From the NCBI RefSeq assembly GCF_002854065.1, contig NZ_CP024151.1: a stretch of DNA of 64,000 nt; one strand, given 5' to 3'. The DNA is from Escherichia coli. GTDB lineage: Bacteria; Pseudomonadota; Gammaproteobacteria; Enterobacterales; Enterobacteriaceae. This document shows positions 8,468 to 60,114 of this stretch, piece by piece. The stretch's first letter is position 1. The number at the start of each line of letters is the position of its first letter. A program made the translations under genes and the position numbers. Below the pieces are notes generated by a model. The model was not told where the DNA came from, ran no database searches, and saw only the letters and a program-made list of their open reading frames with translations.

Positions 8468-8671
8468 CTTCCGTGCTTCGTAGGCCAGAGTTACCTGCAC
8501 CACTGTATTTCCTCTGTGAATATTCAGCTCACATAACCGTTCCCTGAATATCAGTGAAAAACACAACACCATGGCGCACACGGCGAGCAACCCGATAAGG
8601 GCATATTTCGTCATAAACTTTGACCTCTCTGCAAAGAAGAGGCTACAATCAGTAGTGTTAAGGTACTTCAT
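8468..8671 (-). CDS. srnB: Hok/Gef-family type I toxin homologue (SrnB-like)
   Basis: Translation MKYLNTTDCSLFFAERSKFMTKYALIGLLAVCAMVLCFSLIFRERLCELNIHRGNTVVQVTLAYEARK matches the SrnB sequence as I remember it; single TM helix plus conserved C-E-L motif. In this sequence the frame reads on to 8321 with no stop after ...EARK. Confidence 0.7.
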
Positions 8672-41974: not shown

Positions 41975-42003
41975 TAAGTAAAGCCCCGAAAATTTTTTCG
42001 GGG
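41975..42003. terminator. Bidirectional hairpin terminator
   Basis: AAAGCCCCGAAAATTTTTTCGGGGCTTT perfect inverted repeat flanked by A/T runs, between convergent orf169 and the DUF932-like gene. Confidence 0.55.
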
Positions 42004-42017
42004 CTTTACTTATATTA

Positions 42018-42839: not shown

Positions 42840-42957
42840 AACAGCTACTCCTTTATGAAAGAATAAATTTAATAAAAAATTTTTCCGCTTAATATAATCC
42901 CCCCCGATCTCCATTAACAAGATTGCAACAATCAGGAGGGGTATTCATCACATCCGG

Positions 42958-43245
42958 TCAGCAGATCGCCCGGATATCGAGGCCGGCACGCTTAATCTGA
43001 CGCAGGAACTGTTTGAAGTGATCGGCTTCCGCAATGTTGATATGGCGGAACTGCTTATCCACACCCTGACTGAGCGCGTAGCTATAACTGAAGGCCATCT
43101 TTTCCGGGTGGCTTTTGCGATATTTTTTCAGCTCAGTCAGGCTGCTGAATTCCAGGACGTCCCACTCTTCCCCGGTGTTTTTTTTCTTCCCGGCAACAAG
43201 AAGCGTGTACGACGCGGTGTTAACGTGGATATTTCGGGTACTCAT
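42958..43245 (-). CDS. Small leading-region protein (DUF905-like), unknown function
   Basis: 95-aa ORF directly downstream (in transcription sense) of Frpo-like repeat copy 1. Confidence 0.6.
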   Translation of the reverse strand: MSTRNIHVNTASYTLLVAGKKKNTGEEWDVLEFSSLTELKKYRKSHPEKMAFSYSYALSQGVDKQFRHINIAEADHFKQFLRQIKRAGLDIRAIC

Positions 43246-43261
43246 CCTGCTTTCTCCTCTC

Positions 43262-43885
43262 TCTGGTTTTCAGCCCCCATCATCTGTTGAGTTTCGGGAG
43301 CCGCGGTTTTGACGTTTTGCGGGGACCTGCCTTTTGTTCCCTCCGGTATTCACCATCACCTTTTTGAGAACCTTCGCCGCAAGGGGCATCACTGCCACGG
43401 CCGGAAACGACTGTCCGGGGGCAGACCGCAAAAGTTTTTGCCTGCTTTTGAGCAAAAAGTTTTGCGGGATGTGCATTTCACCCCTGGACTGGCGGAGACG
43501 GTTGTGGCTGTCTATGCCCCCGGCGACAGGGGCTTAAACAGGTGAATGGCACCGGACACAACAACGGGCAGGGACCCGCCGCAACGACGTGAAGCGCGGT
43601 TTGCGAAACGGCGTTGCCCCTTACATCCCGGCGGCCTTTTGCCGGGATGCCGGGAGCGCAGGCCACGGCGCGACAGAGGCGGCGCGACCGGAACGGTCGC
43701 TGCAAGCCCGGGGTTTTCACGCATCGGACCGTAGCGACAGCCCGAAACCGCGCCAGCGGGTTCGGCGGAGACTGGCAGGTGCGCCAGCAGCTGCCTGTCG
43801 GAGTCGGGTCTGACGACCGGATGCCGCCAGGCAGCCGGGAGCCGAAGGTGCGCCCGGCAGACAGGACAACACTGCAGTAGTCAGA
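43262..43885 (+). repeat. Dispersed leading-region repeat, copy 1 (Frpo/ssi-like candidate single-strand promoter)
   Basis: About 620 bp, roughly 98% identical to 48604..49220 by eye; GC-rich with many inverted repeats; non-coding despite multiple track ORFs on both strands. Confidence 0.6.
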
Positions 43886-44166
43886 ATCAGAGCAGGAAGA
43901 AAAAGAGAATAATCACAGGGAAGGTGATGTGATTTCTGACAGGCCATAACCAGAGAAGGCGGGGGAAAAGAACGGGCGCCGCAGGCGCGCGTTCATCCCC
44001 GTTCCTGAAGGGAAACGACCTTCCTGAAGTCAGGTTGTTCATGCCCGTACAACATCAGCAAGGAGAAAGGGGCTACCGGCGAACCAGCAGCCCCTTTATA
44101 AAGGCGCTTCAGTAGTCAGACCAGCATCAGTCCTGAAAAGGCGGGCCTGCGCCCGCCTCCAGGTTG

Positions 44167-44325
44167 CTACTTACCGGATTCGTAAGCCATGAAAGCCGCC
44201 ACCTCCCTGTGTCCGTCTCTGTAACGAATCTCGCACAGCGATTTTCGTGTCAGATAAGTGAATATCAACAGTGTGAGACACACGATCAACACACACCAGA
44301 CAAGGGAACTTCGTGGTAGTTTCAT
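44167..44325 (-). CDS. hok: Hok-family type I toxin (flmA/hok-like)
   Basis: Reverse translation [52 protein letters not shown], a 52-aa Hok; below the 60-aa track cut-off, found by reading the overlapping mok frame. Confidence 0.9.
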
Positions 44326-44383
44326 GGCCTTCTTCTCCTTGCGCAAAGCGCGGTAAGAGGCTATCCTGATGTGGACTAGACAT
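44171..44383 (-). CDS. mok: Mok (modulator of killing), overlapping reading frame of the hok locus
   Basis: 70-aa track ORF overlapping hok in an alternative frame and starting upstream, as in hok/mok/sok loci. Confidence 0.7.
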
Positions 44384-44400
44384 AGGGATGCCTCGTGGTG
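44325..44400 (+). ncRNA. sok: Predicted Sok-type antisense RNA
   Basis: Inferred from locus architecture (antisense to the mok translation-initiation region); no sequence-level confirmation, coordinates approximate. Confidence 0.35.
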
Positions 44401-44604
44401 GTTAATGAAAATTAACTTACTACGGGGCTATCTTCTTTCTGTCACACAACACGGCAACAAACCACCTTCACGTCATGAGGCAGAAAGCCTCAAGCGCCGG
44501 GCACATCATAGCCCATATACCTGCACGCTGACCACACTCACTTTCCCTGAAAATAATCCGCTCATTCAGACCGTTCACGGGAAATCCGTGTGATTGTTGC
44601 CGCA

Positions 44605-45324
44605 TCACGCCGCCTCCCGGAGTTTGTTCGGCACCATCCATCGCTCCATCTCACGGACGGCATGACCGGCCTCCCTTGCCGCCATACCAGCCTCTGCGAT
44701 GACCTGCCAGAATGGCATATCCTGCCACTGCCAGCGTTCCATTCCGGCCAGTGACGGAAAACGCTCGCCCCACTGCCAGAACAGGGTTTCCAGGTCATGC
44801 TCTGCCACCCGGTCACTCCAGCGTGCATGCCAGCTTCCGACTGTTTCCGGTGAATGAAATGCCAGTTCGATTTCAGCCTGAGCGACCAGCGCCTGGTACG
44901 CACGGGCTTTCTGCTCTGTCTCCCTCGCCTGCTGGCGGCTGTACTTCTGCATGACCAGCGCGGATTTATGGCGACTGCGTTCCCTGACACGAAACCGCAC
45001 CGACGGGAACAAGCGCTCTGCTGCATCACCGGGAAGGGGAAGGAGGCAGACCTCGCCCTGTGTTTCAATCAGCACATCGATGGCATACAGCCACTGAAGA
45101 CGGTTGCCGTGCAGTTCTTCTGCGGTCAGGGACGGCATGAAAAATCGCAGGTCAGACAGCGATATCCTGCGGCTTCCGTTCAGACAGCGGAAAAACGCCC
45201 CCGCATACGGATATTCAGCCAGCGTGTTACCCTGATGGCGGCGTTTTTCGGTCTCCGCCACCGCCCGCCATGCGGCCTGTTGCTCTGTGCTGAGAGGAAC
45301 CAGTGCCTGTGAACGTGCGCTCAT
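44605..45324 (-). CDS. psiA: PsiA (plasmid SOS inhibition protein A)
   Basis: 239 aa; sequence pattern and position directly downstream of psiB, as in F/R100. Confidence 0.88.
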
Positions 45325-45755
45325 GCCTGACCTCCTTCCGCCATCAGGATATGGATGATGTCGTTAACGCTGTATCCCTGCGTATCCAGTGACGCCGCCA
45401 GTGCCAGTGAATGGCTGACGGCTTCCGGTGCAAACCGCCGCTGTACCTGAACCACCGCAAACGGCTCACCACCGGCATTCACCAGAACCAGCACCCAGAC
45501 CTGGGAGACATCGCCCGGTGAACATAACGCCAGGTGAAAACGTTCGTGGGCAGGCGTGAAACGGACCTGGACGGGGAAAAAGCCGCCAAACTCGCTGCCG
45601 TACTCGCCGTTCATCGTCCAGTTGTCCGGCGCATCCAGCTCCCGCATCACGGCGTGTGTCAGCTCACGGCGTGCATCACTTCCGGCAGCCCGGATATCTT
45701 CATATTCCTGTGCGTTCATGGTATGTAATACATTCAGAGTCAGTTCAGTTTTCAT
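45321..45755 (-). CDS. psiB: PsiB (anti-SOS, RecA inhibitor)
   Basis: 144 aa from [73 protein letters not shown]...; near-identical to F PsiB. Confidence 0.93.
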
Positions 45756-45809
45756 CACGGTATCTCCCTTGCTGCCGCCCCGTCTCCGGCGGGGCGGTGT
45801 GGTTGTTCA

Positions 45810-47768
45810 TCAGGCGGCATCAGCCAGGTTATCGGTGCGTTCAGTGGCATCCGTCTGTGGGCGTGGTGCACACATCCAGCCAGGCACCCAGCGGTTGTCT
45901 TTCATATGGTGCTCTGCATGTTCAGCCGCATCGCCTTTCTTCATCTTCTCCGCGTCCCGTGCGGCACCGGATAGTCCTGCCTCATTCAGGGCTGCGATAA
46001 TCTGCGGCTTTTTCAGGTGTCCGAAAAAGTTTGCTTTCGTCGGCTGCCACCAGTCGCGCATGTGAAAGCCGATGGCGCTCTCCAGCGTGTCCAGCGGACT
46101 GCGTGACGTGTGACCATACTCACGGGTCTGGACACCGTGGATACTGCACGCGGTGCAGAAACTGAGCAGTGATAACAGCACCTCCTGACTGAGTGACAGG
46201 AACGTCGTCATATCCCGTGCCCATCCATCCGGCAGCAGGGCGGCAAGACGGGCTTTTTCTGCCATCATCGTCATGAATGCGGCACCTTCCTTCCCTGACG
46301 GCGCATCGCTGGTCAGCGAATAATGCTCACATTCCAGGCGGATTCTGGCGGGATTGCTGTAAGCTCCGCTGCCAAATACATTCAGACAGAGTGTCCATGC
46401 CAGAAGTGCCAGGGATTTGTCCGGCTGCTGCATCAGTGCTGCCTGGACTGCCAGCGTGCGCTCTGAGGACATTTTCGTCAGCAGTGGCAGACTGATTTCC
46501 TCCACGGAGGCTTTCTCCTGCACCTGTTCCGTGTGGTCAGCGTCGTCAGCCACATCATCCTCACTGCGTAACTGCACACCACGCTGGACACATACGTTTC
46601 CATAACGCCAGGACACCACCACGCCACTTCCGGCACGCATCTCCGGCGTCCACGCCCTGACCTTCGCCATGCAGTCAATCAGCTTCATTTCTGCTTCCAG
46701 CAGGTCGGATTCCTCACACTGGTTTTCCAGCGCATCGTAACGTGCCATCAGTTTGTTCAGGCGTTCTTCTTCTGCCTCCGTCAGCACCGCTTCCGGCTCC
46801 GGCAGACTGCGGTATGTTCCGGCATCCTCACGGCACTCACCAACGGCCTCCATGCGTCCGGCACACCATCCCCAGCCCTCGGCTTCCCGAAGGTGTTCAG
46901 CAACAGCCTGGAGTTTTTCCAGCAGGGCAGCATCGAGCGCAACACAGTCCACATAGCCACCCTCGTCGTCGCTGAACAAATCGGTGCGCAGTTCATCTGG
47001 CGAGAAGGCATCAGCCCCCACAAAGCGGAATTTAGTGTTCCCCGCCACCGCCACTTCACTTTCGGTCACCAGACGACGAATGGTCTGTACTTCCGGTTTT
47101 CCGCCCCATCCCGACTGACAGGCAGCTTCAAACACCTGCACCTGACGCGCGGTGTCGTTCTCCAGCGCCAGCGCCTGACAGTGCTCTGTGGTGATGCGGT
47201 CTTCTGCCAGCGCATCGAGGATGACAGGCGCAAGGTCTGCCAGTTTCAGCATTCGCTGAACGTGGCGGGGTGAATAGCCCAGCAAATCACCGATTTGTGC
47301 AGGCGTTTTGCCTTCCTGCGCCATTGCACGGAATCCGGCAATCTGTTCGGCAGGGTGCATATCCCGACGATGACCGTTTTCAGTCATTGATGCGGCAGTC
47401 GCCAGTTCCTGCGGAATAACCTTCACGCGGACAGGCCAGTCAGCCGGAAGGATGTTGCGCTCTGCCAGCATGTTGAGTGCTGCCAGTCGGCGACCGCCTG
47501 CGGCGACACCGTAACGGTCACCTGGCAGGGCATGAACAACCAGATTCTGCAGCAGGCCGACGCCCTTAATGGACTCTGCCAGTTCGCTGACAGACTCCGC
47601 AGAATACGGCACCGTGCGCACATTCAGCGGTGACTTAATCAGCGAGGCCAGCGGCACGCTCACTTCAGCCGTCTCCGCCAGCAGGGCCGACAGGACTGTT
47701 TCCTGCGTTTTTGCAGGTTTACGGCTGGATTTACGCTCCGTTTTTACCTTAGACTCTGTAACTGACAT
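45810..47768 (-). CDS. Large ParB/Srx-like nuclease-domain protein of the leading region
   Basis: About 652 aa from MSVTESKVKTERKSSRK...; N-terminal ParB-like region (..GLLQNLVVHALPGDRYGVAAGGRRLAAL..); SD AAGGAG before ATG at 47768. Confidence 0.8.
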   Translation of the reverse strand: MSVTESKVKTERKSSRKPAKTQETVLSALLAETAEVSVPLASLIKSPLNVRTVPYSAESVSELAESIKGVGLLQNLVVHALPGDRYGVAAGGRRLAALNMLAERNILPADWPVRVKVIPQELATAASMTENGHRRDMHPAEQIAGFRAMAQEGKTPAQIGDLLGYSPRHVQRMLKLADLAPVILDALAEDRITTEHCQALALENDTARQVQVFEAACQSGWGGKPEVQTIRRLVTESEVAVAGNTKFRFVGADAFSPDELRTDLFSDDEGGYVDCVALDAALLEKLQAVAEHLREAEGWGWCAGRMEAVGECREDAGTYRSLPEPEAVLTEAEEERLNKLMARYDALENQCEESDLLEAEMKLIDCMAKVRAWTPEMRAGSGVVVSWRYGNVCVQRGVQLRSEDDVADDADHTEQVQEKASVEEISLPLLTKMSSERTLAVQAALMQQPDKSLALLAWTLCLNVFGSGAYSNPARIRLECEHYSLTSDAPSGKEGAAFMTMMAEKARLAALLPDGWARDMTTFLSLSQEVLLSLLSFCTACSIHGVQTREYGHTSRSPLDTLESAIGFHMRDWWQPTKANFFGHLKKPQIIAALNEAGLSGAARDAEKMKKGDAAEHAEHHMKDNRWVPGWMCAPRPQTDATERTDNLADAA

Positions 47769-47832
47769 ATATTTCTCCTTTGACCGGGGTGGTTGTATGT
47801 CTGCCGGACGTGATCCCCGTCCGGCACCTCTC

Positions 47833-48580
<748 letters not shown>

Positions 48581-48603
48581 GATGTGCCTCCTTCTGTTGA
48601 TGT

Positions 48604-49220
48604 TTTCAGCCCCCATCATCTTTTGAGTTTCGGGAGCCGCGGTTTTGACGTTTTGCGGGGACCTGCCTTTTGTTCCCTCCGGTATTCACCATCACCTTTT
48701 TGAGAACCTTCGCCGCAAGGGGCATCACTGCCACGGACGGAAACGACTGTCCGGGGGCAGACCGCAAAAGTTTTTGCCTGCTTTTGGGCAAAAAGTTTTG
48801 CGGGATGTACATTTCACCCCTGGACTGGCGGAGACGGTTGTGGCTGTCTTTGCCCCCGGCGACAGGGGCTTAAACAGGTGAATGGCACCGGACAGAACAA
48901 CGGGCAGGGACCCGCCGCAACGACGTGAAGCGCGGTTTGCGAAACGGCGTTGCCCCTTACATCCCGGCGGTCTTTTGCCGGGATGCCAGGAGCGCAGGCC
49001 ACGGCGCGACAGAGGCGGCGCGACCGGAACGGTCGCTGCAAGCCAGGGGTTTTCACGCATCGGACCGTAGCGACAGCCCGAAACCGCGCCAGCGGGTTCG
49101 GCGGAGACTGGCAGGTGCGCCAGCAGCTGCCTGTCGGAGTCGGGCCTGACGACCGGATGCCGCCAGGCAGCCGGGAGCCGAAGGTGCGCCCGGCAGACAG
49201 GACAACACTGCAGTAGTCAG
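48604..49220 (+). repeat. Dispersed leading-region repeat, copy 2 (Frpo/ssi-like), upstream of ssb
   Basis: Near-identical to copy 1; immediately 5' (in minus-sense) of ssb, the classical position of the F Frpo element. Confidence 0.6.
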
Positions 49221-49246
49221 AATCAGAGCAGCAGGAAAAAGAAGAA

Positions 49247-49294
49247 CAGTAGCAGTAGCAGTAGCAGTAGCAGTAGCAGTAGCAGTAGCAGTAG
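49247..49294. repeat. Hexanucleotide microsatellite (CAGTAG)x8
   Basis: Perfect tandem array adjacent to repeat copy 2; the homologous positions after copies 1 and 3 lack the array. Confidence 0.9.
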
Positions 49295-49472
49295 CAGGAA
49301 CAACAACATCAGTAACAGACAAATGACAGGCATGAAGAAACAGAAGCCCCCATCAGAACGTCCGCGTAATGAAAGGGGCGGCGCGTGAGCGCGGCCCCTT
49401 TCAGCACCACCGGCGCGCGTTTTTTCCCGGCGCGGGCAGACAGGCATTTATCCTCCCGCCGGCCCTGTGTCA

Positions 49473-50036
49473 TCAGGCACGCAGACGAATAATCATCGTC
49501 GGGACATCGGTATAAGCAAACGTGCCGCGCGGCAGCTCCTCGCGGACGTCAGAAAACGGTAACAGCTTCTCCTGCTGGCGTGGTCCGTTGAGACAGACGG
49601 CGACCAGCACGCCACCCGGACGCAACAGGGAAAAGGCCCGCAGGATATGCCGGATATCCTGCCCGTGGCTGAACGGCGGATTCATGATAACCCGGCTGTA
49701 ATACTGCACCGGCTGCCATTCCATGAAGTCGCCACACTGAACCCTGACACCGTTAAAATTTTCCCGCAGATACCGGACCAGCCCGCTGTTGATTTCCACC
49801 GCATCACACATGGCCCCCGGCGCGGTATCCCGAATCGCCCGCAGTATGGCCCCGGTGCCGGCAGAGGGTTCCAGAATGTGATCACGGTTGCTGATCTCCG
49901 CCAGCATCACCAGGCGATCACAGACCGGGGCAGGAGTCACAAAAAGCTGAGATTCAGCCCGGATTTCAGCAACCGGCGCGGCGTTATCCAGCCTTGCGCG
50001 CATCAGCCGGATACGTTCTCTTAACTGACTGTGCAT
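49473..50036 (-). CDS. Small class I SAM-dependent methyltransferase (N6-adenine/N4-cytosine-type motifs)
   Basis: 187 aa; motif I ILEPSAGTGAI and motif IV VIMNPPF; substrate (DNA, RNA or protein) cannot be decided from sequence. Confidence 0.7.
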   Translation of the reverse strand: MHSQLRERIRLMRARLDNAAPVAEIRAESQLFVTPAPVCDRLVMLAEISNRDHILEPSAGTGAILRAIRDTAPGAMCDAVEINSGLVRYLRENFNGVRVQCGDFMEWQPVQYYSRVIMNPPFSHGQDIRHILRAFSLLRPGGVLVAVCLNGPRQQEKLLPFSDVREELPRGTFAYTDVPTMIIRLRA

Positions 50037-50083
50037 ATCATTATCTCCGTCATCCCCCGGGGATTTTCCCGGGGGGATATACC

Positions 50084-51445
50084 TTATTTCTGTGGGATTT
50101 CCGTGATTTTCATGTCGGAGATATACACATTCACCAGGCGGAAATTATTGTCCATTGTGCGGCGGTACCGGTATGCCCCGTGGTCTTCTGCTTCTGCCAC
50201 ACTGCGCACGGCCTTACAGTCCCGGGGCAGGGCGGCCCACTGTGCCTTTGTCATTTCCCGGAAACCTTCCCCCGGATAGTTGACTACCGGCGGACGCTTC
50301 GCGGCCTGACTGGCGACGGCAGCCTCTTCTGCCGATGGTGCTTTGTAGTCCGTGATGCGATCGGGCGTCACTTTCATCGTGCCGCTGTACCCGAGAAAAC
50401 TGTAATTTGGCGTTGTGACTGAACTCACCGCCCCGTTGCTTTTGTTCACACGGATGATGGTCAGCCACTCGCCCCGGCTGAAAACCTGTCCGCCCGGCTC
50501 AAAATCCTGTGTCCGGGTAACCACGCCGCCGCTTTCGTCCAGCATGGCACGCTCATAGATCAGGCGGTTCTGATAGTGGTTAACCCAGCGTTGTTGATGC
50601 TGAATCTGCCGTTCATGACAGCGGATCGCAATTTCGCGGGCCTGCTCCGTGGTGATGATGTCATCATCCAGGGCCGACCATAACGATCGACTTCCTTCAT
50701 ACTGGCTTTTTTCTGCCGGGCGCGGATACGTATCCAGCGGGAAACAGGCGCTGATATGGTCATGACTGCTGATGAGTTTTGCCATATTCAGATCCAGCGA
50801 TTCAGCCCGCCACATCGTCAGATATTTCTGCGACTGCGCGATGGTCTTTTCAGCCTTGCGCAAATCAGCTTCGATTTTTTTGATACGACGCCAGCGAACG
50901 TCCGGACGTTCTTTATACTTCGCGTGAAGCAGTGCCGACCGCGCCCGCTCTTCCCAGTATTCCGCACGTTCAAAGAGCATCACGGCTCGTTTCATGCCGT
51001 TTTCAATACGCTGCGCATCACGACGGGCGCGGCGTTCGCTGTGATGCCCCACAAGAATGGGCTGACCGGGCGGGATCATCGCGGCCAGTCTTTCCACTTC
51101 ATCAAGTGCCTGTGCGGATTCACTGGCCCGCTTTCCGCTGTATCCGGTAAACCGCTCCGCCCGTGCTTCCTGACGTTCAGCGAGCGTGCTGTCTTCATCC
51201 TCAATCTCTCCGGCAAGTGAGAGGAGCACGTCTTCCCGGCCCGGTGTCCAGGCTGGCGCGACAAACAGCGCCTGTTTGGGTGCCCAGCGAAAACCGGCAT
51301 CATGCACTTTTTTATACGTCTCCGGGTCGAGGCGTGACGCGGCATACAGGCGCAGTTTGTTGTCATCCGGTGAGTAGGTCGCGCGGTACATCTGCACAGG
51401 GCTGGCGGCTTCCGGGGCGGTCATGGTGATTGCTGCTAATGTCAT
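50084..51445 (-). CDS. Hypothetical protein, 453 aa (leading region)
   Basis: Long ORF with coiled-coil-like basic/acidic middle region; no motif recognised by inspection; co-directional and tightly spaced with flanking genes. Confidence 0.65.
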   Translation of the reverse strand: MTLAAITMTAPEAASPVQMYRATYSPDDNKLRLYAASRLDPETYKKVHDAGFRWAPKQALFVAPAWTPGREDVLLSLAGEIEDEDSTLAERQEARAERFTGYSGKRASESAQALDEVERLAAMIPPGQPILVGHHSERRARRDAQRIENGMKRAVMLFERAEYWEERARSALLHAKYKERPDVRWRRIKKIEADLRKAEKTIAQSQKYLTMWRAESLDLNMAKLISSHDHISACFPLDTYPRPAEKSQYEGSRSLWSALDDDIITTEQAREIAIRCHERQIQHQQRWVNHYQNRLIYERAMLDESGGVVTRTQDFEPGGQVFSRGEWLTIIRVNKSNGAVSSVTTPNYSFLGYSGTMKVTPDRITDYKAPSAEEAAVASQAAKRPPVVNYPGEGFREMTKAQWAALPRDCKAVRSVAEAEDHGAYRYRRTMDNNFRLVNVYISDMKITEIPQK

Positions 51446-51496
51446 AAAATGTTCTCCTTCCGTCTGTTGCCGCCCCTCGCGGGGCGGCTCACCTCA

Positions 51497-51727
51497 TCAG
51501 TTAAAAGCGCGTTTCAGTTCGAGTGTGCGGAGCACCTGCCCGAAGGCCGTGTTTTTCATGGCGGGGATGTGTACACCACGCCCCCGGTGAAAACTCCGGG
51601 CAATGTGTCGCCCGAAGGCTTTCAGCACGGGGTCAATTTCCGGCGCGGGGATGTCTTCGCGTCTGAAACGGGGATGACGGCGGGGCTTTACAGCCGCTGC
51701 GGAAGGTGAAACAATACTTACTGTCAT
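51497..51727 (-). CDS. Hypothetical small basic protein, 76 aa
   Basis: First ORF downstream (minus-sense) of repeat copy 3; Arg/Lys-rich. Confidence 0.45.
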   Translation of the reverse strand: MTVSIVSPSAAAVKPRRHPRFRREDIPAPEIDPVLKAFGRHIARSFHRGRGVHIPAMKNTAFGQVLRTLELKRAFN

Positions 51728-51964
51728 AAATGAAACTCCTTATGACAAATTGGTTAACAATGCCGTCAAAATTGGTTGTGCAATTCTTACGGCGTGGATT
51801 AAGCAGGTCCCTGACCTGCTTTTTTCATATCTGCGTCTGACGTTCTACGGTGTTTTCCTCCTTCTGTTCCTGCGTTCTCATTACCTGCCAGCCGGATGAC
51901 TGACAGAACAAATAAATGCATATTGCCGGAGCCTGAAATAAATCCTGATTTTTAAAGAACATCA

Positions 51965-52575
51965 CCCGTTGAGTTTCGGGAGCCGCGGTTTTGACGTTTC
52001 GCGGGAACCTGCTGCTGTATTCCCTGTGGTATGAACTTCACCCGTTTGAGAACCTTCGCCGCAAGGGGCATCACTGCCACGGCCTGACGCACCTGTCCTG
52101 GGCAGAACGCAAAATTTTTTACCGGGTTTTGGGTAAAAAATTTTGTGGGCTGTTCATTTACCCTGGACAGTCAGTGCGGCAGGTTGTGGCTGTATCAGCC
52201 CCCGGCGACAGGGACTCATACGGGTGTGTGGCACCGGCAGGCAATGAGCAGGGACCCGCCGCAACGACGGAGAGCGCGTGCGCGAAACGGCGTTGCCCCT
52301 TACATCCCGGCGGCCTTTTGCCGGGATGCCGGGAGCGCAGGCCACGGCGCGACAAGGGTGGCGCGACCGGAACGGTCGCTGCAAGCCCGGGGTTTTCACG
52401 CATCGGACCGTAGCGACAGCCCGAAACCGCGCCAGCGGGTTCGGCGGAGACTGGCGGGTGCGCCAGCAGCTGCCTGTCGGAGTCGGGCCTGACGACCGGA
52501 TGCCGCCAGGCAGCCGGGAGCCGAAGGTGCGCCCGGCAGACAGAACAACACTGCAGTAGTCAGAATCAGAGCAGC
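51965..52575 (+). repeat. Dispersed leading-region repeat, copy 3 (Frpo/ssi-like), 5' half diverged
   Basis: 3' about 330 bp near-identical to copies 1 and 2 (CCCGCCGCAACGAC...GCAGTAGTCAGAATCAGAGCAG); 5' half recognisably related but diverged. Confidence 0.6.
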
Positions 52576-52764
52576 AGATAAAGGAACAACAACATCAGGA
52601 ACAGTTCCATAACATAAGAAAGAAACACTCCTGAGTCAGACACATCACAGACGGGAAGGGTAACGGGCGACGCGCCAGCGTGGCCCGCTTCCCTTCCGGC
52701 AGGCGTCAGCCTGCCAGGGGTTTTCGCGCGGACTGACAGGCGGCCTCCACCGCCTGCCCCTGTA

Positions 52765-52956
52765 TCACCTGTTTCTGCTACCCTGTAAGATGTAGTGACC
52801 GCCCAGGAAAACCGCCTGCTGATTCGCCACAAAATCGCAGATTTCATCAACAATCTGCGCGGTGGTGAGCGGTTTCTGCCCCATTTCACGACGCCGCGCA
52901 TTAATCACGGCCCTGTAATTACGCAGAATTTCGCGGGTTTCTGTGCTGATATTCAT
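52765..52956 (-). CDS. Hypothetical small protein, 63 aa
   Basis: Start overlaps the stop of the upstream 144-aa gene by 4 nt (translational coupling). Confidence 0.4.
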   Translation of the reverse strand: MNISTETREILRNYRAVINARRREMGQKPLTTAQIVDEICDFVANQQAVFLGGHYILQGSRNR

Positions 52957-53387
52957 GACATCGTCTCCCCGTCCAGCGCCTGTAACACAACGTCCATTGC
53001 TTCGCGTTCCTCCCTGACGAATGCGTCACCGTCGCCCCCGTTCTCACTCCCGACGGCATACAGGCGCTTCATTTCACTGCCTGCCAGCGCCATCACTTTT
53101 TCCAGCATCACCGCCGGGACTGTCACCTGACGGCTGGCGCGCTTTTCTTCCATCAGTTCATGAACAACGCCGTGAACAACGCCGTGAACAACGCTGACAT
53201 CCGCACCATATTCAAAGGCATCGTCCAGCCGCTGCATGACGGTTTCCAGCTCATCGTCTGTCAGACTCCAGTCCTGGGCTATGTGACGCACATCCCCACG
53301 GGTCAGCACCACGGCAAAAACGCATTCACTGTCCGGCACGTCTGTATCCAGCACTTCGCGGATAATTTCTTTAACAGTACAGTACAT
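52953..53387 (-). CDS. Hypothetical acidic protein, 144 aa (paralogue A)
   Basis: Shares ends and central motif (RQVTVPA) with the 55103..55537 product; SD AAGGAG before ATG 53387; contains an in-frame 12-bp x3 tandem repeat. Confidence 0.65.
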   Translation of the reverse strand: MYCTVKEIIREVLDTDVPDSECVFAVVLTRGDVRHIAQDWSLTDDELETVMQRLDDAFEYGADVSVVHGVVHGVVHELMEEKRASRQVTVPAVMLEKVMALAGSEMKRLYAVGSENGGDGDAFVREEREAMDVVLQALDGETMS

Positions 53388-53433
53388 GTTCTCGTCTCCT
53401 TTACAGGGGCGGCATTGCCGCCCCGTCCGTTAA

Positions 53434-53859
53434 TCAGTCCAGAGCCGCGTAAATCGCGTTGCATTCGGGGTGAAATTCGATGTGACGCCACAACTGCGCA
53501 TCGCGCATCCGGTAAAGCTGGGTCAGTCCTGCATCCCCGCTGTCGTGGTACAGCCACAACTGGCGGTTAATCACAAGGGAGGTCAGGATGATGCCTGCGG
53601 CATCAGCACTCACGGTACGGTCAAACCAGTTTGCACCGTTCACCATGTGGAAACGGTCGCCATCCGGCATCATGTAACCGCCACCGTCCGGCAGGCGGAT
53701 GAAGTGCCAGAAGCCTCCCTGATATTCCGGCATCATTTTTTGCGCCAGCGCGTACACATACGCCTCGGCATACAGAAAATCGTTGCCAAACAGATACGGC
53801 AGAAAGGAGAGACGGTCGCACTCTTCAACATTCAGAGTGACAGGTTTCGCATATTGCAT
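53434..53859 (-). CDS. klcA: KlcA/ArdB-family antirestriction protein
   Basis: 141 aa; ...[21 protein letters not shown]...[18 protein letters not shown]...[27 protein letters not shown]...[12 protein letters not shown], the conserved KlcA/ArdB pattern as I remember it. Confidence 0.85.
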
Positions 53860-54275
53860 GATGTTTTCCTCCGTTGTTCACATATTCCGCGACACCGGGC
53901 GGTGCCGTGCCTCCATAAAAGCCGGGCGAACAGGCGGGGATGCAGGGGCGCAAGGGAAGCCGCAGCCTGACGCACACGGCTGACGGGAGTTGCAGGGTGA
54001 GACCGCGAAATCTGAGCGGGTGAACGACCGGAAAATCACGGCAGACGGGAAGGAGGGACCGGGTGACCGCAGCGGCGAAGCGTACCCTTGCATCAACGCC
54101 AGCCCGGCTAAGATGGAGGCACGGCACAGCCCGCACACGACGCTGAGGCCACATAACTGAAAAACCACAAGGCCATGCCCTGCATGGCCGGGTAAAGCGG
54201 AGCCGGCGGCGACTTCCTTTGTGCTCTGTCCGGGGACCGGCAGGAAAAAGGCGGGGATTTACCCCGCCAGTGTCA

Positions 54276-55103
54276 TCATTTCCGGATTTTTGCCAGGGCA
54301 TCCGCCATGCTGCGGATTTCGGTCCGGGCTTCCCGGACCACCTCCCGCAGAACACCACGGTCAAACCAGCGGCGGGGCGGTTCATCCGGTATACGCAGCA
54401 CATCGCAGGCCAGCCCACTGGACAGGATATGCTCAATACACTCACTGACCAGATACATTTCCACCGACGAAAAACGTGCTCCCCGGTTCACGATGGCATC
54501 GAGCACCACGGGCAGGTTTTCGTCATCTTCATCGAGCCAGCAGGGGTGATCGCTTTCCTTCACGACCAGGCGAAAGCGGCGCGTCTGGCGGGTCAGCAAC
54601 GTCTGACCGGTGGTGGTCAGCGCCGCACGGATACGCCGCGCATCTTCTGCCACCTGGTAACAGATGCTTCGTACCGCATCGTGCACCGCATCAAGAACAG
54701 CCTTGATTTCGTCTTCGGTCAGCCATTCTCCGGCATACGGGAAAGACACCTGCGTTCCGTCTGCCGGAAGTACCGGCAGCGACTGCCACTGACTGCCGGA
54801 CAGTACCAGTTCCGCCCCGGTTCCGGTCAGTCTCTGAATGGCGGAGGCCAGGAGCGGCGGCAGTACGCCGCCGTGACGGTTGATAAGTAACGTCGCCAGC
54901 CGGGGCGCATCCAGCCGCACGTAAATGCTGATCCAGCCCGGATAGTTCGGATTTCGCTGGTCAACATCCGTCTCTTCCGGCCAGTCCTGCGCCAGCAGCA
55001 GGTTACGGGCGTGACGACAAATCAGTGCGTTCAGCGTGCTGTTTTCGTTCATGATTAAGCGTTCTCCCTGTATCGCCGCCCGCAGGGCAGGCGGCGATAA
55101 CAT
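54276..55103 (-). CDS. Hypothetical protein, about 258-275 aa (leading region)
   Basis: Track ORF; alternative start at 55052 ([10 protein letters not shown]...). Stop/start abuts the upstream paralogue-B gene. Confidence 0.6.
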
Positions 55104-55537
55104 CAGTTGTTTTCGTGTGTGTTGTTTTTCAGCAGGGTGCGGGCCTGATTAACCACCGCCTGACGGCGGGTAACGCATTCCGGGACGGCGAGGCCGTTAT
55201 CACGGGCGGCCCACTCACGTTTCCACAGTGCCTGTTCAGCGGTCTGAATCAGGGACGCCAGCAGTTCAGCAGGGACGGTCACCTGGCGGTTTTCGCTCAC
55301 GTTGCTGATAATCTCCATCACCGCGGCGGAAGAAATACCGGATTCAGTCCGCTGGTCTTCCGGGATGTCCTCCATGCGCGCCAGGACGGTCCTGATTTCA
55401 TGATCGGTCAGAGAAATTTCCATACCGTCAGCCAGTGCCTGAATCTCTTCCGGGGACCAGATAACCAGCATCAGCGGCGCGTCTCCCGGATACTTTGCTG
55501 CCAGCTCCCGGCATAGCGTTTCGCATGTTCCGTACAT
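55103..55537 (-). CDS. Hypothetical acidic protein, 144 aa (paralogue B)
   Basis: Paralogous to 52953..53387 (same length, MY.T..E..RE N-terminus, ...LTD.E..TV..R..D..., RQVTVPA core); near-identical RBS context (AAGGAGACGAGAA-ATG). Confidence 0.65.
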
Positions 55538-55550
55538 TCTCGTCTCCTTC

Positions 55551-55772
55551 TCAATCTTTGAAGCAGGAATCCAGTTCCAGAATTTCGGTATACGCCTCCA
55601 TAAACAGGCGATTGGCGCGATACAGCGTCTGGCGTGTCAGGCGTTCAACAAGCACATCGGAATCAAAGCGACAGCGATGCTCCATATCGTTCAGCCTAGC
55701 CCGAAGGTCACACATGGTGTTGGCCACCTCCGCCACGTCGGCGCGAAGTTTTTCGTGTCCGGCATAGTTCAT
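55551..55772 (-). CDS. Hypothetical small protein, 73 aa
   Basis: ORF immediately downstream of the methyltransferase gene (adjacent stop/start). Confidence 0.45.
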   Translation of the reverse strand: MNYAGHEKLRADVAEVANTMCDLRARLNDMEHRCRFDSDVLVERLTRQTLYRANRLFMEAYTEILELDSCFKD

Positions 55773-56456
55773 TTACGCAGCCTCCGGTTCAAACCAGTTA
55801 TCATTCGCGGCCCCCTGCTGCATGGCCCGTTGCACGGCGGCCAGTCGTTGCTGTCCGGCACGGTGATACTGTTCAAGCAGCTCGATACCGATATACCGGC
55901 GTCCGGACTGGAGGGCGGCCACGCAGGTTGAGCCGCTGCCTGCAAACGGGTCCAGCACAATCGCGTTCGGATGTGTGAAGCTCTCAATCAGTGGTTGCAG
56001 GCTGGTAACGGGCTTTTCCGTCGGGTGATGGCGGTTGCCCGAATATTTCCAGCCCAGCACGTCGGGTAATGGCTTCGGAGGCAGCGCCGGACGGCCTTTT
56101 GCCAGGATATAGGCGCATTCGTGACGGTACGCGACATACGCAGATTTGGATGTGTAGCTTTTGGTGAACACAAGGTGCCCTACAACGCTGAATCCGGCGC
56201 GTTTCCAGGCTGCCATAAAGCGGTCAATACGGTTCCAGCCATAGAAACTCACCATCAGCGCATCTTTTTTTAGTACGCGGTACATCTCATTACTGGCAGG
56301 TTGCAGCCAGTCATCGTTAACGTCACCGGCAATGGTGCGCCCGGAACGGTCACGAAAACCAACGAGATATGGTGGGTCGGTTAAGATGAAATCAATGGCG
56401 TTATCAGGAATCGTGGCCATAACACGCACGCAGTCACCCAGGATAAAACGGGACAT
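55773..56456 (-). CDS. Orphan DNA methyltransferase, beta class (N6-adenine or N4-cytosine; YhdJ-like)
   Basis: 227 aa; motif IV DPPY near the N-terminus (..DFILTDPPYLVGF..), HPTEKP, and motif I DPFAGSGST near the C-terminus, the circularly permuted beta-class order; no adjacent restriction endonuclease candidate. Confidence 0.85.
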   Translation of the reverse strand: MSRFILGDCVRVMATIPDNAIDFILTDPPYLVGFRDRSGRTIAGDVNDDWLQPASNEMYRVLKKDALMVSFYGWNRIDRFMAAWKRAGFSVVGHLVFTKSYTSKSAYVAYRHECAYILAKGRPALPPKPLPDVLGWKYSGNRHHPTEKPVTSLQPLIESFTHPNAIVLDPFAGSGSTCVAALQSGRRYIGIELLEQYHRAGQQRLAAVQRAMQQGAANDNWFEPEAA

Positions 56457-56841
56457 AACAGCACTCCTCCTCTTACAGAGGGCACCGGGAGGGCGCCCCT
56501 GTGGCGCCCGTTCTCCGCTGCCTGTGGGCTGTTCACCGCGTCCGGTAACGGGTCAGGCCGACCGTGGAATACCGCAGCCGTCGTCTTTCTGACGGCGAGG
56601 ATATGCCGCGAAAGCGGCTTGAAGGGCATTCATCAGAAAAGGGCGACAGGCTGGCGTACACTGTCACCGACGCCAGCCAGGAGCGGTAAAAGCGCCCGTC
56701 CCGTGCCCGGCCGGACACGGGACACTGACCACAGGCAGCGTTCCTGCCGCGCCGCGTCAGCCGGCGCAGTAAAAAGAGGAGCACGGCGACATCCTTTGTC
56801 GGAAAAGAAACGGGCGGTTGCCCGCCCGTCTCCGTCATACT

Positions 56842-57768
56842 TCATCCGCCATAATGCGCCACCTTGTCGACTATCCACGCAGGTCCGGTGACTTCCGGCA
56901 GCTCATCGTCATCTGTCGGGGAAGACCATTCAAGTTCCCCCCACAGCACATCAACGAGCTCTCCACGCTCATACAACTGCCAGCCACAGAAATTGCAGCC
57001 TTGTTCGGCGTACCAGTGCTCCAGCGTGCAGCTGAAACGGCGGCTTAATTCTGCAACAACGTCGCTTTCCGGCTGACACCACGGCGTGTCGAAATCCACC
57101 TGAATGAAGTTTTCTCCCTGACTGCTGATATTCAGGTCATACCCACAAGGCCACTTCACGCCATACCGTTCGGTATACCAGTGATATGCAGAAGGAACAC
57201 CGTTCAGAACACCACCGTTAAAGCCATTCACTTCAACATCCAGGCGGGTCGGCAGAACCGTCAGCAGGTCAAACGGCATGGTTTTTTCCGGCAGCACGTT
57301 GTCACACAGACGGTTCCACCACACCGATACATCCTCGTTACCCCAGATGTCACACCAGTCACCTCTTTTTGCGGTGAAATGCACAGTGATGATTTCCCTG
57401 ACATCATCCGGTAATCCTTCCCAGCGACGCTGTCCAGTACCGCTCTGCAGCCAGAGTTTATGCAGCATCAGGCAGTTTTGCTCATCCAGCAGTACACCGT
57501 CCTGCAGGTATGTCAGCCAGCGGGTGAACGCGATATTCTCCGGCGATACAACGCCACGCCCGGCAGCCGTCAGTCCGGGGCATGGTTCAAACCGCACATC
57601 TTCAGTGGTCTGCAGAAGTCCGGCACTTCCGGCCAGAAACAGCTGAATACCTTCATTTGTGGCGCGGCGATAAAGCGGTGTGACTGCACCGCTGGCCAGT
57701 CGTTTAATCTCAGCAATCTGTGCCGGTTCACCAGAAAAATGCATACGATTTGAGCACCAGTTTGGCAT
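56842..57768 (-). CDS. Conserved leading-region protein (DUF1281-like), unknown function
   Basis: 309 aa from MPNWCSNRMHFSGEPAQIAEIKRL...; SD AGGAGA before ATG 57768; Trp/Cys-rich. Family name from memory. Confidence 0.7.
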   Translation of the reverse strand: MPNWCSNRMHFSGEPAQIAEIKRLASGAVTPLYRRATNEGIQLFLAGSAGLLQTTEDVRFEPCPGLTAAGRGVVSPENIAFTRWLTYLQDGVLLDEQNCLMLHKLWLQSGTGQRRWEGLPDDVREIITVHFTAKRGDWCDIWGNEDVSVWWNRLCDNVLPEKTMPFDLLTVLPTRLDVEVNGFNGGVLNGVPSAYHWYTERYGVKWPCGYDLNISSQGENFIQVDFDTPWCQPESDVVAELSRRFSCTLEHWYAEQGCNFCGWQLYERGELVDVLWGELEWSSPTDDDELPEVTGPAWIVDKVAHYGG

Positions 57769-58122
57769 GGGAATTCTCCTCTCACATGCGGCCTCTATCA
57801 GGCCGTGCCGCACCTGTAACCGGGCGACCGCATACGAATGCAGGTGCGGCCCCGAAGCCGCAGCGCGTGGAGGAGGAACGACGAAACGTGACCGGGTGAG
57901 GAGGCCGGCGACAGCGACACACTTGCATCGGATGCAGCCCGGTTAACGTGCCGGCACGGCCTGGGTAACCAGGTATTTTATTCACAGAACCGTGCGCAAA
58001 ATGCTGTGGATAAGCTGGACACAGCAGTCCACAGCAGGCATACAGCCACACCCTCAGAGAATTGAGCGTTTTTTAGTCACAATAATGACATTTGACTGTG
58101 TGTGGATTCAGTTATTAGAATG

Positions 58123-58138
58123 CTGTATATACATACAG
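58123..58138 (+). promoter_or_regulatory. LexA (SOS) box overlapping the promoter of the dinI/umuDC-like operon
   Basis: CTGTATATACATACAG (CTGT-N8-ACAG) immediately downstream of TTGACT (58092..58097) and TAGAAT (58116..58121) with 18-bp spacing. Confidence 0.8.
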
Positions 58139-58161
58139 CAATAGAAAAGGGAGATGAGAAC

Positions 58162-58410
58162 ATGATCCGCATTGAAATTCTTTTCGACCGCCAGAGCACA
58201 AAAAACCTCAAATCAGGCACACTTCAGGCGCTACAGAATGAAATCGAACAACGTCTGAAACCACACTCCCCGGAAATCTGGCTGCGTATAGACCAGGGCA
58301 GCGCCCCGTCTGTATCTGTCACAGGAGCCCGCAACGACAAGGATAAAGAACGTATCATGTCTCTGCTGGAAGAAATCTGGCAGGACGACAGCTGGCTGCC
58401 TGCAGCATGA
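58162..58410 (+). CDS. DinI-family protein (ImpC-like)
   Basis: 82 aa from MIRIEILFDRQ...; resembles DinI; SD AAGGGAG before ATG 58162; first gene of the SOS-box operon. Confidence 0.75.
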   Translation: MIRIEILFDRQSTKNLKSGTLQALQNEIEQRLKPHSPEIWLRIDQGSAPSVSVTGARNDKDKERIMSLLEEIWQDDSWLPAA

Positions 58411-58844
58411 GTACCGTTTATCACCGTCCGGCTGACCCTTCAGGCGATGACAGTTACGTGCGACCGTTGTTTGCCGATCGTTGCCAGGCCGGTTTTCCTT
58501 CGCCTGCCACTGATTATGCTGAGCAGGAACTGGATCTGAACAGCTATTGCATCAGCAGACCTGCAGCCACCTTCTTTCTGCGCGCCAGCGGTGAATCGAT
58601 GAACCAGGCTGGCGTGCAGAATGGTGATCTGCTGGTAGTGGACAGGGCCGAGAAACCACAACACGGGGACATCGTTATCGCTGAGATCGACGGTGAGTTC
58701 ACCGTCAAACGACTGCTGTTGCGCCCACGCCCGGCACTGGAGCCGGTTTCAGACAGCCCGGAATTTCGCACACTGTATCCGGAAAACATCTGTATTTTTG
58801 GTGTTGTCACTCACGTGATACACAGGACGCGGGAGTTACGCTGA
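58407..58844 (+). CDS. UmuD/ImpA/MucA-family protein (LexA-like S24 peptidase, Pol V accessory subunit)
   Basis: 145 aa; C-terminal peptidase-S24 region with ...RASGESMNQAGVQNGDLLVVDRAEKPQHGDIVIAEIDGEFTVKRL...; overlaps dinI-like stop. Confidence 0.88.
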   Translation: MSTVYHRPADPSGDDSYVRPLFADRCQAGFPSPATDYAEQELDLNSYCISRPAATFFLRASGESMNQAGVQNGDLLVVDRAEKPQHGDIVIAEIDGEFTVKRLLLRPRPALEPVSDSPEFRTLYPENICIFGVVTHVIHRTRELR

Positions 58845-60114
58845 TGTTTGCACTGGCTGATATCAACAGTTTCTACGCCTCATGTGAAAAAGTTTTCCGC
58901 CCGGACCTTCGCAACGAACCGGTCATCGTACTCAGCAATAACGATGGCTGTGTGATCGCGCGCAGCCGGAGGCAAAAGCCCTTGGCATCAGAATGGGGCA
59001 GCCCTGGTTTCAGGTGAGACAGATGCGCCTGGAGAAGAAAATACATGTATTTTCCAGCAATTATGCGCTGTACCACAGCATGAGCCAACGGGTCATGGCT
59101 GTTCTGGAGTCGCTTTCTCCCGCAGTTGAGCCCTACTCAATTGATGAAATGTTCATTGATTTGCGGGGGATAAATCATTGCATCTCTCCGGAGGTTTTTG
59201 GTCATCAGCTCAGGGAACAGGTAAAGAGCTGGACAGGACTCACCATGGGGGTGGGCATTGCGCCTACAAAAACGCTGGCTAAAAGTGCACAGTGGGCAAC
59301 AAAGCAATGGCCACAGTTTTCCGGTGTGGTCGCGCTGGAGGCAGAAAACCGTAATCGGATCTTGAAGCTACTGGGGCTGCAGCCAGTTGGTGAGGTCTGG
59401 GGAGTAGGACGCAGACTGACGGAAAAGCTGAATGCGCTGGGTATTAACACAGCACTGCAGCTGGCGCAGGCTAACACGGCATTCATCCGGAAAAACTTCA
59501 GCGTCATTCTTGAGCGTACGGTACGCGAACTCAACGGCGAGTCCTGCATATCCCTGGAAGAAGCACCACCGGCAAAACAGCAGATTGTCTGTAGTCGCAG
59601 TTTTGGTGAACGAATCACAGACAAAGATGCCATGCACCAGGCTGTTGTTCAGTATGCAGAGCGGGCCGCAGAGAAACTACGTGGGGAGCGTCAGTATTGC
59701 CGGCAGGTGACGACATTTGTACGGACATCCCCCTTTGCAGTAAAAGAACCCTGTTACAGCAATGCCGCTGTGGAAAAGCTTCCATTACCCACACAGGACA
59801 GCCGGGACATTATTGCCGCAGCATGCAGAGCGTTAAACCATGTCTGGCGTGAAGGGTACCGCTATATGAAGGCAGGAGTCATGCTGGCTGATTTCACACC
59901 ATCGGGTATAGCGCAGCCGGGATTATTTGATGAGATCCAGCCCCGTAAAAACAGCGAAAAGTTAATGAAAACACTCGATGAACTGAACCAGTCTGGAAAA
60001 GGGAAAGTGTGGTTTGCGGGGCGAGGAACCGCCCCTGAATGGCAAATGAAACGGGAAATGCTCTCGCCTTCGTATACAACACAATGGACTGAGATCCCCA
60101 TTGCTTCATTCTGA
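58844..60114 (+). pseudogene. UmuC/ImpB/MucB-family Y-family DNA polymerase gene interrupted by a -1 frameshift near 58960
   Basis: N-terminus MFALADINSFYASCEKVFRPDLRNEPVIVLSNNDGCVIAR is in one frame (58844 onward, stops at 59017); the rest (AQPEAKALGIRMGQPWFQ... to ...TQWTEIPIASF) continues in another frame from about 58960 (track ORF 58993..60114). Confidence 0.7.

Follow-up and report, generated by a model that had tools for sequence, protein, structure and literature searches.

Is the DUF1281 gene at the distal edge of the leading region of F-type plasmids expressed early in the recipient cell and, if so, what could its product do there? This was examined for the gene at positions 56842-57768 of a 64,000-nt stretch of Escherichia coli DNA (RefSeq assembly GCF_002854065.1, contig NZ_CP024151.1), hereafter called the window, which is an F-type (IncFIB/FIC-like) conjugative plasmid. 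A first-pass annotation of the DNA letters had described the product as a Trp- and Cys-rich candidate early-expressed effector with a possible metal-binding fold. The gene is orthologous to yfdA of F (YfdA = YubB; YccB, YfaB, or YafB in other plasmids) and to the gene of pESBL Hp8 (O3K_25842), neither of which differs from it in any substantive way; the Hp8 protein is 94% identical, and both flanking neighbours are shared. The gene was found in at least 4,884 plasmid records and identical copies are present in several public plasmids, so that the window copy is an ordinary allele of a catalogued uncharacterised gene and its finding is not new. The main result concerns the DNA in front of it, an extremely conserved hairpin that resembles the single-strand promoters of klcA and ardA. 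We tentatively favour, with confidence that stops a little short of even, the view that YfdA is produced for a short time in the recipient, from its own single-stranded DNA (ssDNA) promoter hairpin, and acts there as an accessory factor in establishment or against host defence. Early expression and an effector function are plausible, albeit unproven.

Transfer orientation and the hairpin upstream of the DUF1281 gene

The features on which the argument rests are the following.
41112-41128, + strand: nic sequence of the origin of transfer (oriT), GTGGGGTGT/GGTGCTTT, an exact match that occurs once in the window
57769-57980, + strand: ultra-conserved non-coding block upstream of DUF1281, given as the transferred strand
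57799-57963, + strand: long imperfect 165-nt hairpin on the transferred strand, formed by inverted repeat I5 (arms 57799-57825 and 57937-57963)
57923-57928, + strand: putative -35-like hexamer TTGCAT, paired within the stem and located on the 3' arm (the non-template one)
57944-57949, + strand: putative -10-like hexamer TAACGT on the 3' arm, with two central bases unpaired in an internal loop
57776-57781, - strand: Shine-Dalgarno sequence GAGGAG, as read from the sequence, 7 nt before the ATG at 57768

The sequence at 41112-41128, which we take to be the nic site of F, sets the direction of transfer. The tra operon is located on the - strand, from traM (40414-40797) to the gene of the 1756-aa TraI (11029-16299), and traM, traJ, traD, and traI are all left of nic. 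Since nic is on the + strand and the tra genes run leftward on the - strand, the + strand is the transferred strand (T-strand), which enters 5' to 3' toward higher coordinates. The genes on the - strand in the region ~42000-57800 use the T-strand as template; this co-oriented block includes DUF932, hok, psiA, psiB, a ParB-like gene, ssb, DUF3560, a KlcA-type antirestriction gene, DUF1380, and an N6/N4 methylase. The DUF1281 gene, read on the - strand from the ATG at 57768 to the stop at 56842, is its last member. Its start is 16.6 kb away from nic, and in an identical plasmid it ranks about 27th among the annotated coding sequences (CDS) after oriT, which places it in the leading region, taken as the first ~30 open reading frames (ORFs) beyond oriT for which the T-strand can serve as template. 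The first-pass annotation had put the gene on the early-transferred strand. The template strand is indeed the transferred one, but "early" needs qualifying for a gene at this distance and at the end of the block. In a survey of leading regions the family was listed as no. 27 of the enriched families, with 1,949 members and a false discovery rate (FDR) P of 0 (Samuel et al. 2024, Supplementary Table 1). Its median ORF position is 22 from oriT, on the T-strand-transcribable strand (strand 1), and it was annotated as "Uncharacterized; DUF1281" without a DIAMOND or Foldseek match to anti-CRISPR or anti-restriction sets.

The gene was said to have a hairpin-rich upstream block of its own, and this has held up. 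Folded as ssDNA, the 333-nt upstream spacer reaches -73 kcal/mol (z = -4.3), a value that none of 100 shuffled sequences attained. The 27-nt arms of I5 are 81% complementary and are separated by 111 nt, and the minimum free energy of the hairpin, calculated with DNA parameters over 57790-57975, is -50.3 kcal/mol.

Three classes of single-strand promoters have been described: class 1 (Frpo/ssi), class 2 (klcA, ardA), and class 3 (M.EcoGIX), the starts of which were mapped by rapid amplification of cDNA 5' ends (5' RACE) in pESBL transconjugants (Wen et al. 2025). An nhmmer profile of five klcA/ardA class-2 blocks, all taken from other plasmids, was searched against the window. It matched the DUF1281 block at 57881-57961 (E = 5.4e-8) and 57802-57868 (E = 0.006), collinearly and on the same strand; elsewhere in the window it matched the klcA block only (E = 1.6e-87), apart from reverse-strand matches to the complementary arms of the klcA hairpin. 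With blastn, the DUF1281 block aligned to class 2 at 74-77% identity over 71-73 nt. From this weak but specific homology, the hairpin is identified as a divergent one of the class-2 single-strand-promoter type and a putative paralogue of that of klcA/ardA. In common with the class-2 promoters (ssp2; klcA/yfgB, ardA), it is a long imperfect T-strand hairpin with the sequence TTGCAT-15 nt-TA(A/C)(G/C)(A/G)T on the 3' arm, a putative -35 that is paired, a putative -10 that is partly unpaired, and GCCCGG and GGCACGGC stems. It differs from them in sequence (~74-77% identity over ~70 nt) and in its interior, with 111 instead of 174 nt between the arms. In the available parts of Wen et al. 2025 and of the 2026 preprint (bioRxiv 10.64898/2026.01.09.698686), it is not among the promoters reported.

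The layout of the putative boxes mirrors that of the hairpin upstream of klcA in the window, in which TTGCAT (54088-54093) has the same pairing and the same 15-nt spacing and is followed by TAAGAT with three unpaired bases; the spacing is short, and the boxes are those read from the sequence here. In both hairpins, the GC-rich stems GCCCGG and GGCACGGC flank the boxes. In both class-2-type hairpins (53896-54133 and 57799-57963), the putative -10 coincides with a 2-3-nt internal loop between perfect GC-rich stems, a shared design that may pre-melt the promoter. If the DUF1281 hairpin acts as a promoter, the transcript would be expected to begin close to template position 57805, with a leader of ~37 nt that contains the Shine-Dalgarno sequence. 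A consensus scan of the upstream region revealed no sigma-70-type promoter on the - strand of DUF1281, and no Rfam family matched in 53500-58300.

The conservation of the block exceeds that of the gene by far. In a comparison of the window, pESBL (IncI), and an F-like plasmid, 210-211 of the 212 nt of block 57769-57980 are identical (211/212 in pESBL), whereas dS of the adjacent DUF1281 gene in the same three plasmids is 0.13-0.17. Some 27 changes would be expected in a neutral block (Poisson P about 4e-11). Of the 4,368 PLSDB plasmids with a match to the block, 3,710 (85%) have it at an identity of 99% or more, while the CDS reaches this level in only 18 of 4,884 (0.4%); the constraint on the hairpin is therefore much stronger than that on the protein. 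Purifying selection also acts on the gene itself (dN/dS 0.20-0.25).

Gene order is kept in two IncFII plasmids, from Klebsiella and Citrobacter, while their DUF1281 proteins are only 44-48% identical to that of the window. In these, DUF1281 is preceded by a long hairpin of the class-3 type, 77-80% identical to the block upstream of the methylase gene in the window. A hairpin thus always precedes the gene in the IncF/IncI and diverged IncFII plasmids, although in the latter one type has replaced the other. The IncFII plasmids have two copies of the class-3 (M.EcoGIX-type) hairpin, one before the methylase and one before DUF1281, which shows that single-strand promoter modules are exchanged between leading genes. 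The copies are located as follows.
6736-6953 and 8596-8873 of locus L002, 6733-6952 and 8413-8678 of locus L003: duplicated class-3 hairpins of the IncFII plasmids of Klebsiella grimontii and Citrobacter freundii

The regions upstream of distant homologues in other elements also fold better than shuffled sequences (z -2.6 to -5.0). They contain several short hairpins instead of one long promoter-type hairpin and were not counted as evidence for ssDNA promoters.

The DUF1281 product and its conserved residues

The translation, MPNWCSNRMHFSGEP...WYAEQGCNFCGWQLYERG...HYGG, is 308 aa followed by the stop, one residue less than the 309 aa first given; its sequence agrees with the stretches quoted in the first-pass annotation. 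Some RefSeq records begin at Met9, by which the MPNWC motif, the most conserved of the family, is lost. The 308-aa start is correct on two grounds, namely the GAGGAG Shine-Dalgarno sequence and the alignment of homologues, including Api92, from residues 1-3. The product is an acidic soluble protein (pI 4.56, net charge -21), and the family is uniformly acidic, with a mean pI of 4.7 and a mean net charge of -20. Its richness in Trp and Cys proved genuine: it has 16 Trp (5.2%) and 10 Cys (3.25%), compared to 1.47% and 1.06%, respectively, in 17 other window genes pooled (binomial P = 1.8e-5 and 1.8e-3).

The assignment to DUF1281 was right, as both Pfam models score above their gathering cut-offs: DUF1281 (PF06924) with E 1.5e-48 and 165.1 bits (cut-off 27.3), and DUF1281_C (PF18406) with E 4e-15 and 55.9 bits (cut-off 22.8). 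The product has the three-dimensional fold of its crystallised homologue, Api92 of Yersinia pseudotuberculosis (PDB 2IJR). The latter protein differs in lacking C258, C261, and the conserved ...HYGG C-terminus, and its gene is borne by a chromosomal island or an integrative and conjugative element (ICE) rather than by an IncF/IncI leading region. The secondary structure consists of a strand (4-12), a helix (15-25), a helical part from ~30 to 205, a strand-strand-helix-strand unit (210-255), and two further strands. From this topology, the N-terminal strand-helix would be the first beta-alpha unit of a ferredoxin-like domain, and the ~175-residue DUF1281 helical domain would be inserted between it and residues ~210-280.

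Conserved residues were taken from two alignments, one of 20 enterobacterial plasmid sequences (45-94% identical) and one of 32 homologues (25-61% identical). The family-wide motifs are M-P-N-W-C-x-N-R at the extreme N-terminus, E-x-N-G-F-N-G, Y-G-x-K-W-P, D-F-D-T-x-W-x-P-P, E-x-G-x-x-F-C-G, P-x-(W/Y)-I, and a C-terminal (H)-(Y/F)-G-G. The last of these (window 56842-56850) occurs in 20 of the 32 sequences of the diverse alignment as well as in a relative from a jumbo phage; conservation of a Gly-Gly at the terminus is unusual. In the antiparallel 4-1-3-2 sheet of a ferredoxin-like domain, the start of strand 1 adjoins the ends of strands 3 and 4, for which reason C5/N7, D225/D227/T228, and H251/E255 should cluster and form a candidate binding or catalytic site.

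Remote relatives were found by structural and hidden Markov model (HMM) comparison (Foldseek E = 2e-8 to 4e-4). These "YubB ferredoxin-like domain" proteins of 170-260 aa are found in Caudovirales, giant viruses, and polinton-like viruses; most of them are without the DUF1281 helical insertion, and their identity is 10-25%. A 345-aa jumbo-phage protein keeps PNWCSNR, NGFNG, DFDTxWSPP, AEQGxxFCG, and ...YGG. No match to the DUF1281 product was obtained in NCBIfam or PADLOC, the PHROGs matches were to families of unknown function only, and a Pfam scan of the 32 homologues at E up to 1 gave nothing recurrent except DUF1281 and DUF1281_C. Some candidates were tried and set aside. A profile-versus-PDB match to bacterial STING (6wt5, E = 0.015) was without structural support and was treated as chance, and the idea of a tautomerase-like N-terminal proline was abandoned for lack of family-wide conservation of P2. 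Two further readings, "DFDT" as a HAD-like DxDxT motif and a palm domain, were set aside by reasoning only, as spacing and strand positions do not fit.

A Cys/Trp-rich fold that binds zinc (or Fe-S) through CxxC motifs of the C-terminal half is highly doubtful for this protein. The several CxxC-like spacings of the first-pass annotation come down to a single one, C258-N-F-C261. Within the enterobacterial plasmid subfamily (the 20 sequences), C5, C155, C258, C261, H103, H251, and H305 are 95-100% conserved, which would fit a subfamily-specific site. Among the 32 diverse homologues, C5 (91%), H251 (88%), and C261 (84%) are well kept, while conservation drops to 66% for C247, 44% for C258, and 19% for C155. 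Api92 has Asn and Arg at the positions of C258 and C261 and folds without these cysteines, and the jumbo-phage homologue has Met at the position of C258 and is without H251. Four conserved Cys/His ligands, typically arranged as two CxxC/CxxH pairs, were not found; Pfam and fold searches gave no zinc or Fe-S family or fold, zinc finger and ferredoxin cluster included, at meaningful E-values; and the "ferredoxin-like" of the Pfam name denotes nothing more than the beta-alpha-beta-beta-alpha-beta fold. Given the poor Cys conservation, the Api92 substitutions, and the lack of a zinc/Fe-S match, a canonical four-ligand Cys/His site is not a property of the family, and the suggested metal-binding fold is not supported.

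Neighbouring genes and relatives in other elements

The regions on either side of the DUF1281 gene contain the following features.
55773-56456, - strand: orphan N6/N4 DNA methylase, homologue of M.EcoGIX / F YfeA (Pfam N6_N4_Mtase, 6.7e-39), the conserved downstream neighbour
56457-56841, + strand: hairpin block of the class-3 type that separates the DUF1281 stop from the methylase start (ssDNA fold z = -6.1; inverted repeat I4)
58092-58121, + strand: sigma-70 promoter TTGACT-18-TAGAAT of the divergent dinI-umuD-umuC (imp) operon, marking the boundary
58123-58138, + strand: LexA-box-like CTGT-N8-ACAG of the same operon, at the same boundary

The synteny of DUF1281 and the methylase holds down to 44% DUF1281 identity (for the role of M.EcoGIX, see PMC4288162). 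An ssDNA promoter of class 3 was placed 5' of M.EcoGIX by Wen et al. 2025, and by analogy the block at 56457-56841 would be the promoter of the M.EcoGIX homologue. RefSeq copies carry a 101-aa "hypothetical protein" at 56533-56838 on the - strand. It lies wholly within this hairpin block, is rich in Arg, Gly, and Pro, and has no similarity to the small ORF that a diverged plasmid has at the equivalent position; it is unlikely to be a gene.

Other hairpins of the window are those at 53896-54133, upstream of the KlcA-type gene, and at 56516-56740, upstream of the methylase; the klcA block is 97.7% identical to that of pESBL. Three repeats of ~640 nt of the Frpo/ssi type (43266-43902, 48602-49238, and 51948-52581), 67-98% identical to each other, correspond to the class-1 single-strand promoter blocks upstream of psi/ssb-type operons. 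The ORF at 49473-50036 (- strand), where ssb was first expected, encodes a class I SAM-dependent methyltransferase (MTS / Methyltransf_25), and the leading region thus has two different methyltransferase genes. On the far side of DUF1281, umu operons are the usual terminating boundary of anti-defence islands in leading regions (Samuel et al. 2024). In the window, the umuC/impB-like Y-family polymerase is split into two overlapping ORFs on the + strand (58844-59017 and 58993-60114), which together span 1271 nt compared to 1272 nt for the intact gene of pESBL, indicative of a 1-nt frameshift; umuC (58844-60114) is probably a pseudogene here. The gene table of an identical plasmid lists umuD and not umuC.

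In other elements, homologues occur in related company. An Api92-type homologue (30% identical) in an ICE is located between ArdC (ArdcN + MPTase-PolyVal) and an N6_Mtase gene, with a TraI_2 relaxase and an integrase adjoining. Another homologue directly follows a KlcA-type Antirestrict gene, a marine one is found among SSB, RecT, and YqaJ, and two others lie within runs of unannotated small genes. DUF1281 is thus accompanied by anti-restriction genes and orphan methylases in unrelated elements (ICE, KlcA-type context, IncF, and IncI).

Possible roles of YfdA

In the reading favoured here, the 165-nt hairpin would reconstitute a promoter upon entry of the T-strand into the recipient, its -35 (TTGCAT) being paired and its -10 (TAACGT) melted in part, as in the klcA paralogue. 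A short burst of YfdA synthesis would follow and be ended by synthesis of the complementary strand. The protein would then act as a non-essential establishment or anti-defence accessory, most plausibly by binding a host factor via the conserved cluster, in which W4-C5-x-N7-R8 (start of strand 1), D225-F-D227-T228 (end of strand 3), and H251 and E255 (end of strand 4) should come together with the NGFNG loop. The yfdA gene is the most distal leading gene transcribable from the incoming strand, between the umuDC boundary on one side and M.EcoGIX, DUF1380, and KlcA on the other.

Several observations support this reading. The hairpin is related to the klcA/ardA class-2 promoters, which were validated by 5' RACE in pESBL (Wen et al. 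2025). It is more conserved than the CDS, a hairpin is also present in the diverged IncFII plasmids, and no conventional promoter was found. In independent contexts, the gene keeps company with anti-restriction and methylase genes, the family is acidic, and its motifs extend to a jumbo phage. YfdA resembles ArdA, KlcA/ArdB, and Ocr in being a strongly acidic, small-to-medium soluble protein and, where its genomic island is concerned, in location and orientation, but it has no sequence or fold similarity to these proteins, and it is like the DNA mimics of the ArdA/Ocr type by composition only. Like M.EcoGIX, KlcA, and ArdA, it is dispensable in restriction-poor recipients.

Other observations weigh against it. 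As far as the available part of the study extends, six operons were induced and six ssDNA promoters identified in pESBL (ssi1-3, klcA, ardA, and M.EcoGIX), and Hp8/YfdA was assigned neither to one of these operons nor to the ssp set of F (Wen et al. 2025). The F promoters named in the accessible parts of that study and of the 2026 preprint are ssp1a/b, ssp2, and ssp3 only, and the preprint uses yfdA only as a landmark for parS insertion. pESBL has the same gene and a near-identical hairpin (211/212 nt), yet no induction is reported in the sections available; the gene may be induced only weakly or not at all, and this one published data set may speak against a strong induction. Transposon sequencing (Tn-seq) of pESBL gave Hp8 probabilities of 1.00 for non-essential, 0.00 for maintenance, and 0.00 for transfer into K-12 (Yamaichi et al. 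2015); M.EcoGIX, KlcA, and other leading genes scored like Hp8 in this defence-poor recipient. Sequence and fold searches revealed no similarity of YfdA to known anti-CRISPR or anti-restriction proteins, and full-text literature searches for DUF1281, Api92, yubB, yccB, and yfdA found no functional study. The hexamer spacing of 15 nt is short, the class-2 homology is weak (74-77% over ~70 nt), and remote relatives are present in giant viruses and polinton-like viruses, which favours a generic biochemical activity over an inhibitor specific for bacterial immunity.

In an alternative view, which would fit the absence of this gene from the published list of six induced operons, the hairpin serves mainly in DNA processing, as a site where synthesis of the complementary strand is primed and/or blocked at the far end of the leading region, with YfdA not zygotically induced and made at a low level from double-stranded DNA for a role in maintenance or in the donor. 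In F, the class-2 hairpin ssp2 has been proven to act in cis as a replication roadblock, and DNA synthesis is primed by Frpo transcripts, so that the conserved DUF1281 hairpin could serve DNA processing rather than, or alongside, expression; its extreme conservation fits a function at the DNA level as well as it fits a promoter. Nevertheless, the start codon is 31 nt from the end of the hairpin, a strong Shine-Dalgarno sequence lies between the two, the putative -35/-10 layout of the hairpin equals that of the validated klcA promoter, no alternative promoter was found, and Hp8 is dispensable for maintenance and transfer. This explanation is considered unlikely, albeit one to be taken seriously. 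The distribution of the core domain over phages, giant viruses, and polinton-like viruses is as expected for generic chemistry, and YfdA could be an enzyme or a small-ligand-binding protein, the conserved cluster being an active site with a Cys nucleophile and/or a divalent metal bound by carboxylates, acting on a universal substrate such as a nucleotide, a cofactor, or a nucleic-acid end. The residues of the cluster (C5, N7, E179, N181, K205, D225, D227, T228, H251, E255, and C261) are of polar or catalytic types, located in loops and at strand ends, and are kept at 25% identity in the jumbo phage; both extreme termini (MPNWC... and ...Y/F-G-G) are conserved as well. We regard this as rather improbable.

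Mrr restricts m6A DNA, and YfdA might conceivably be a functional partner of the adjacent promiscuous ssDNA adenine methylase, either as a shield from methylation-dependent (type IV, Mrr-like) restriction or as a modulator of the methylase. The order of DUF1281 followed by an orphan methylase does recur with two unrelated methylase families, PF01555 (IncF/IncI) and PF02384 (ICE), but the two genes have separate putative hairpin promoters, and other DUF1281 contexts are without a nearby methylase; such a partnership seems very unlikely. More far-reaching than the accessory role preferred above is the proposal that DUF1281/YfdA is the founding member of a new establishment or anti-defence class with the otherwise unique Api92 fold, expressed from an unlisted class-2-like promoter, sharing its core with phages, ICEs, giant viruses, and polinton-like viruses, and neutralising a barrier beyond those addressed by ArdA, KlcA, PsiB, and the methylase. 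Examples would be a nucleotide-based immune signal or the methylation-dependent restriction that the adjacent promiscuous ssDNA methylase provokes. This proposal is speculative and, in our estimate, improbable as it stands.

The DUF1281 gene is carried by thousands of IncF and IncI resistance and virulence plasmids, and the fold of its product is seen nowhere else in the PDB. Should the protein indeed be synthesised within the first minute after entry and overcome a host barrier, it would represent a new mechanism of plasmid establishment and might serve as a target in efforts to block the spread of resistance. More concretely, the gain is regulatory: the hairpin appears to be an additional, extremely conserved member of the family of single-strand promoters and roadblocks, apparently unreported in the literature searched. 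Further interest resides in the biochemistry of a unique and very widespread fold, together with this ultra-conserved hairpin.

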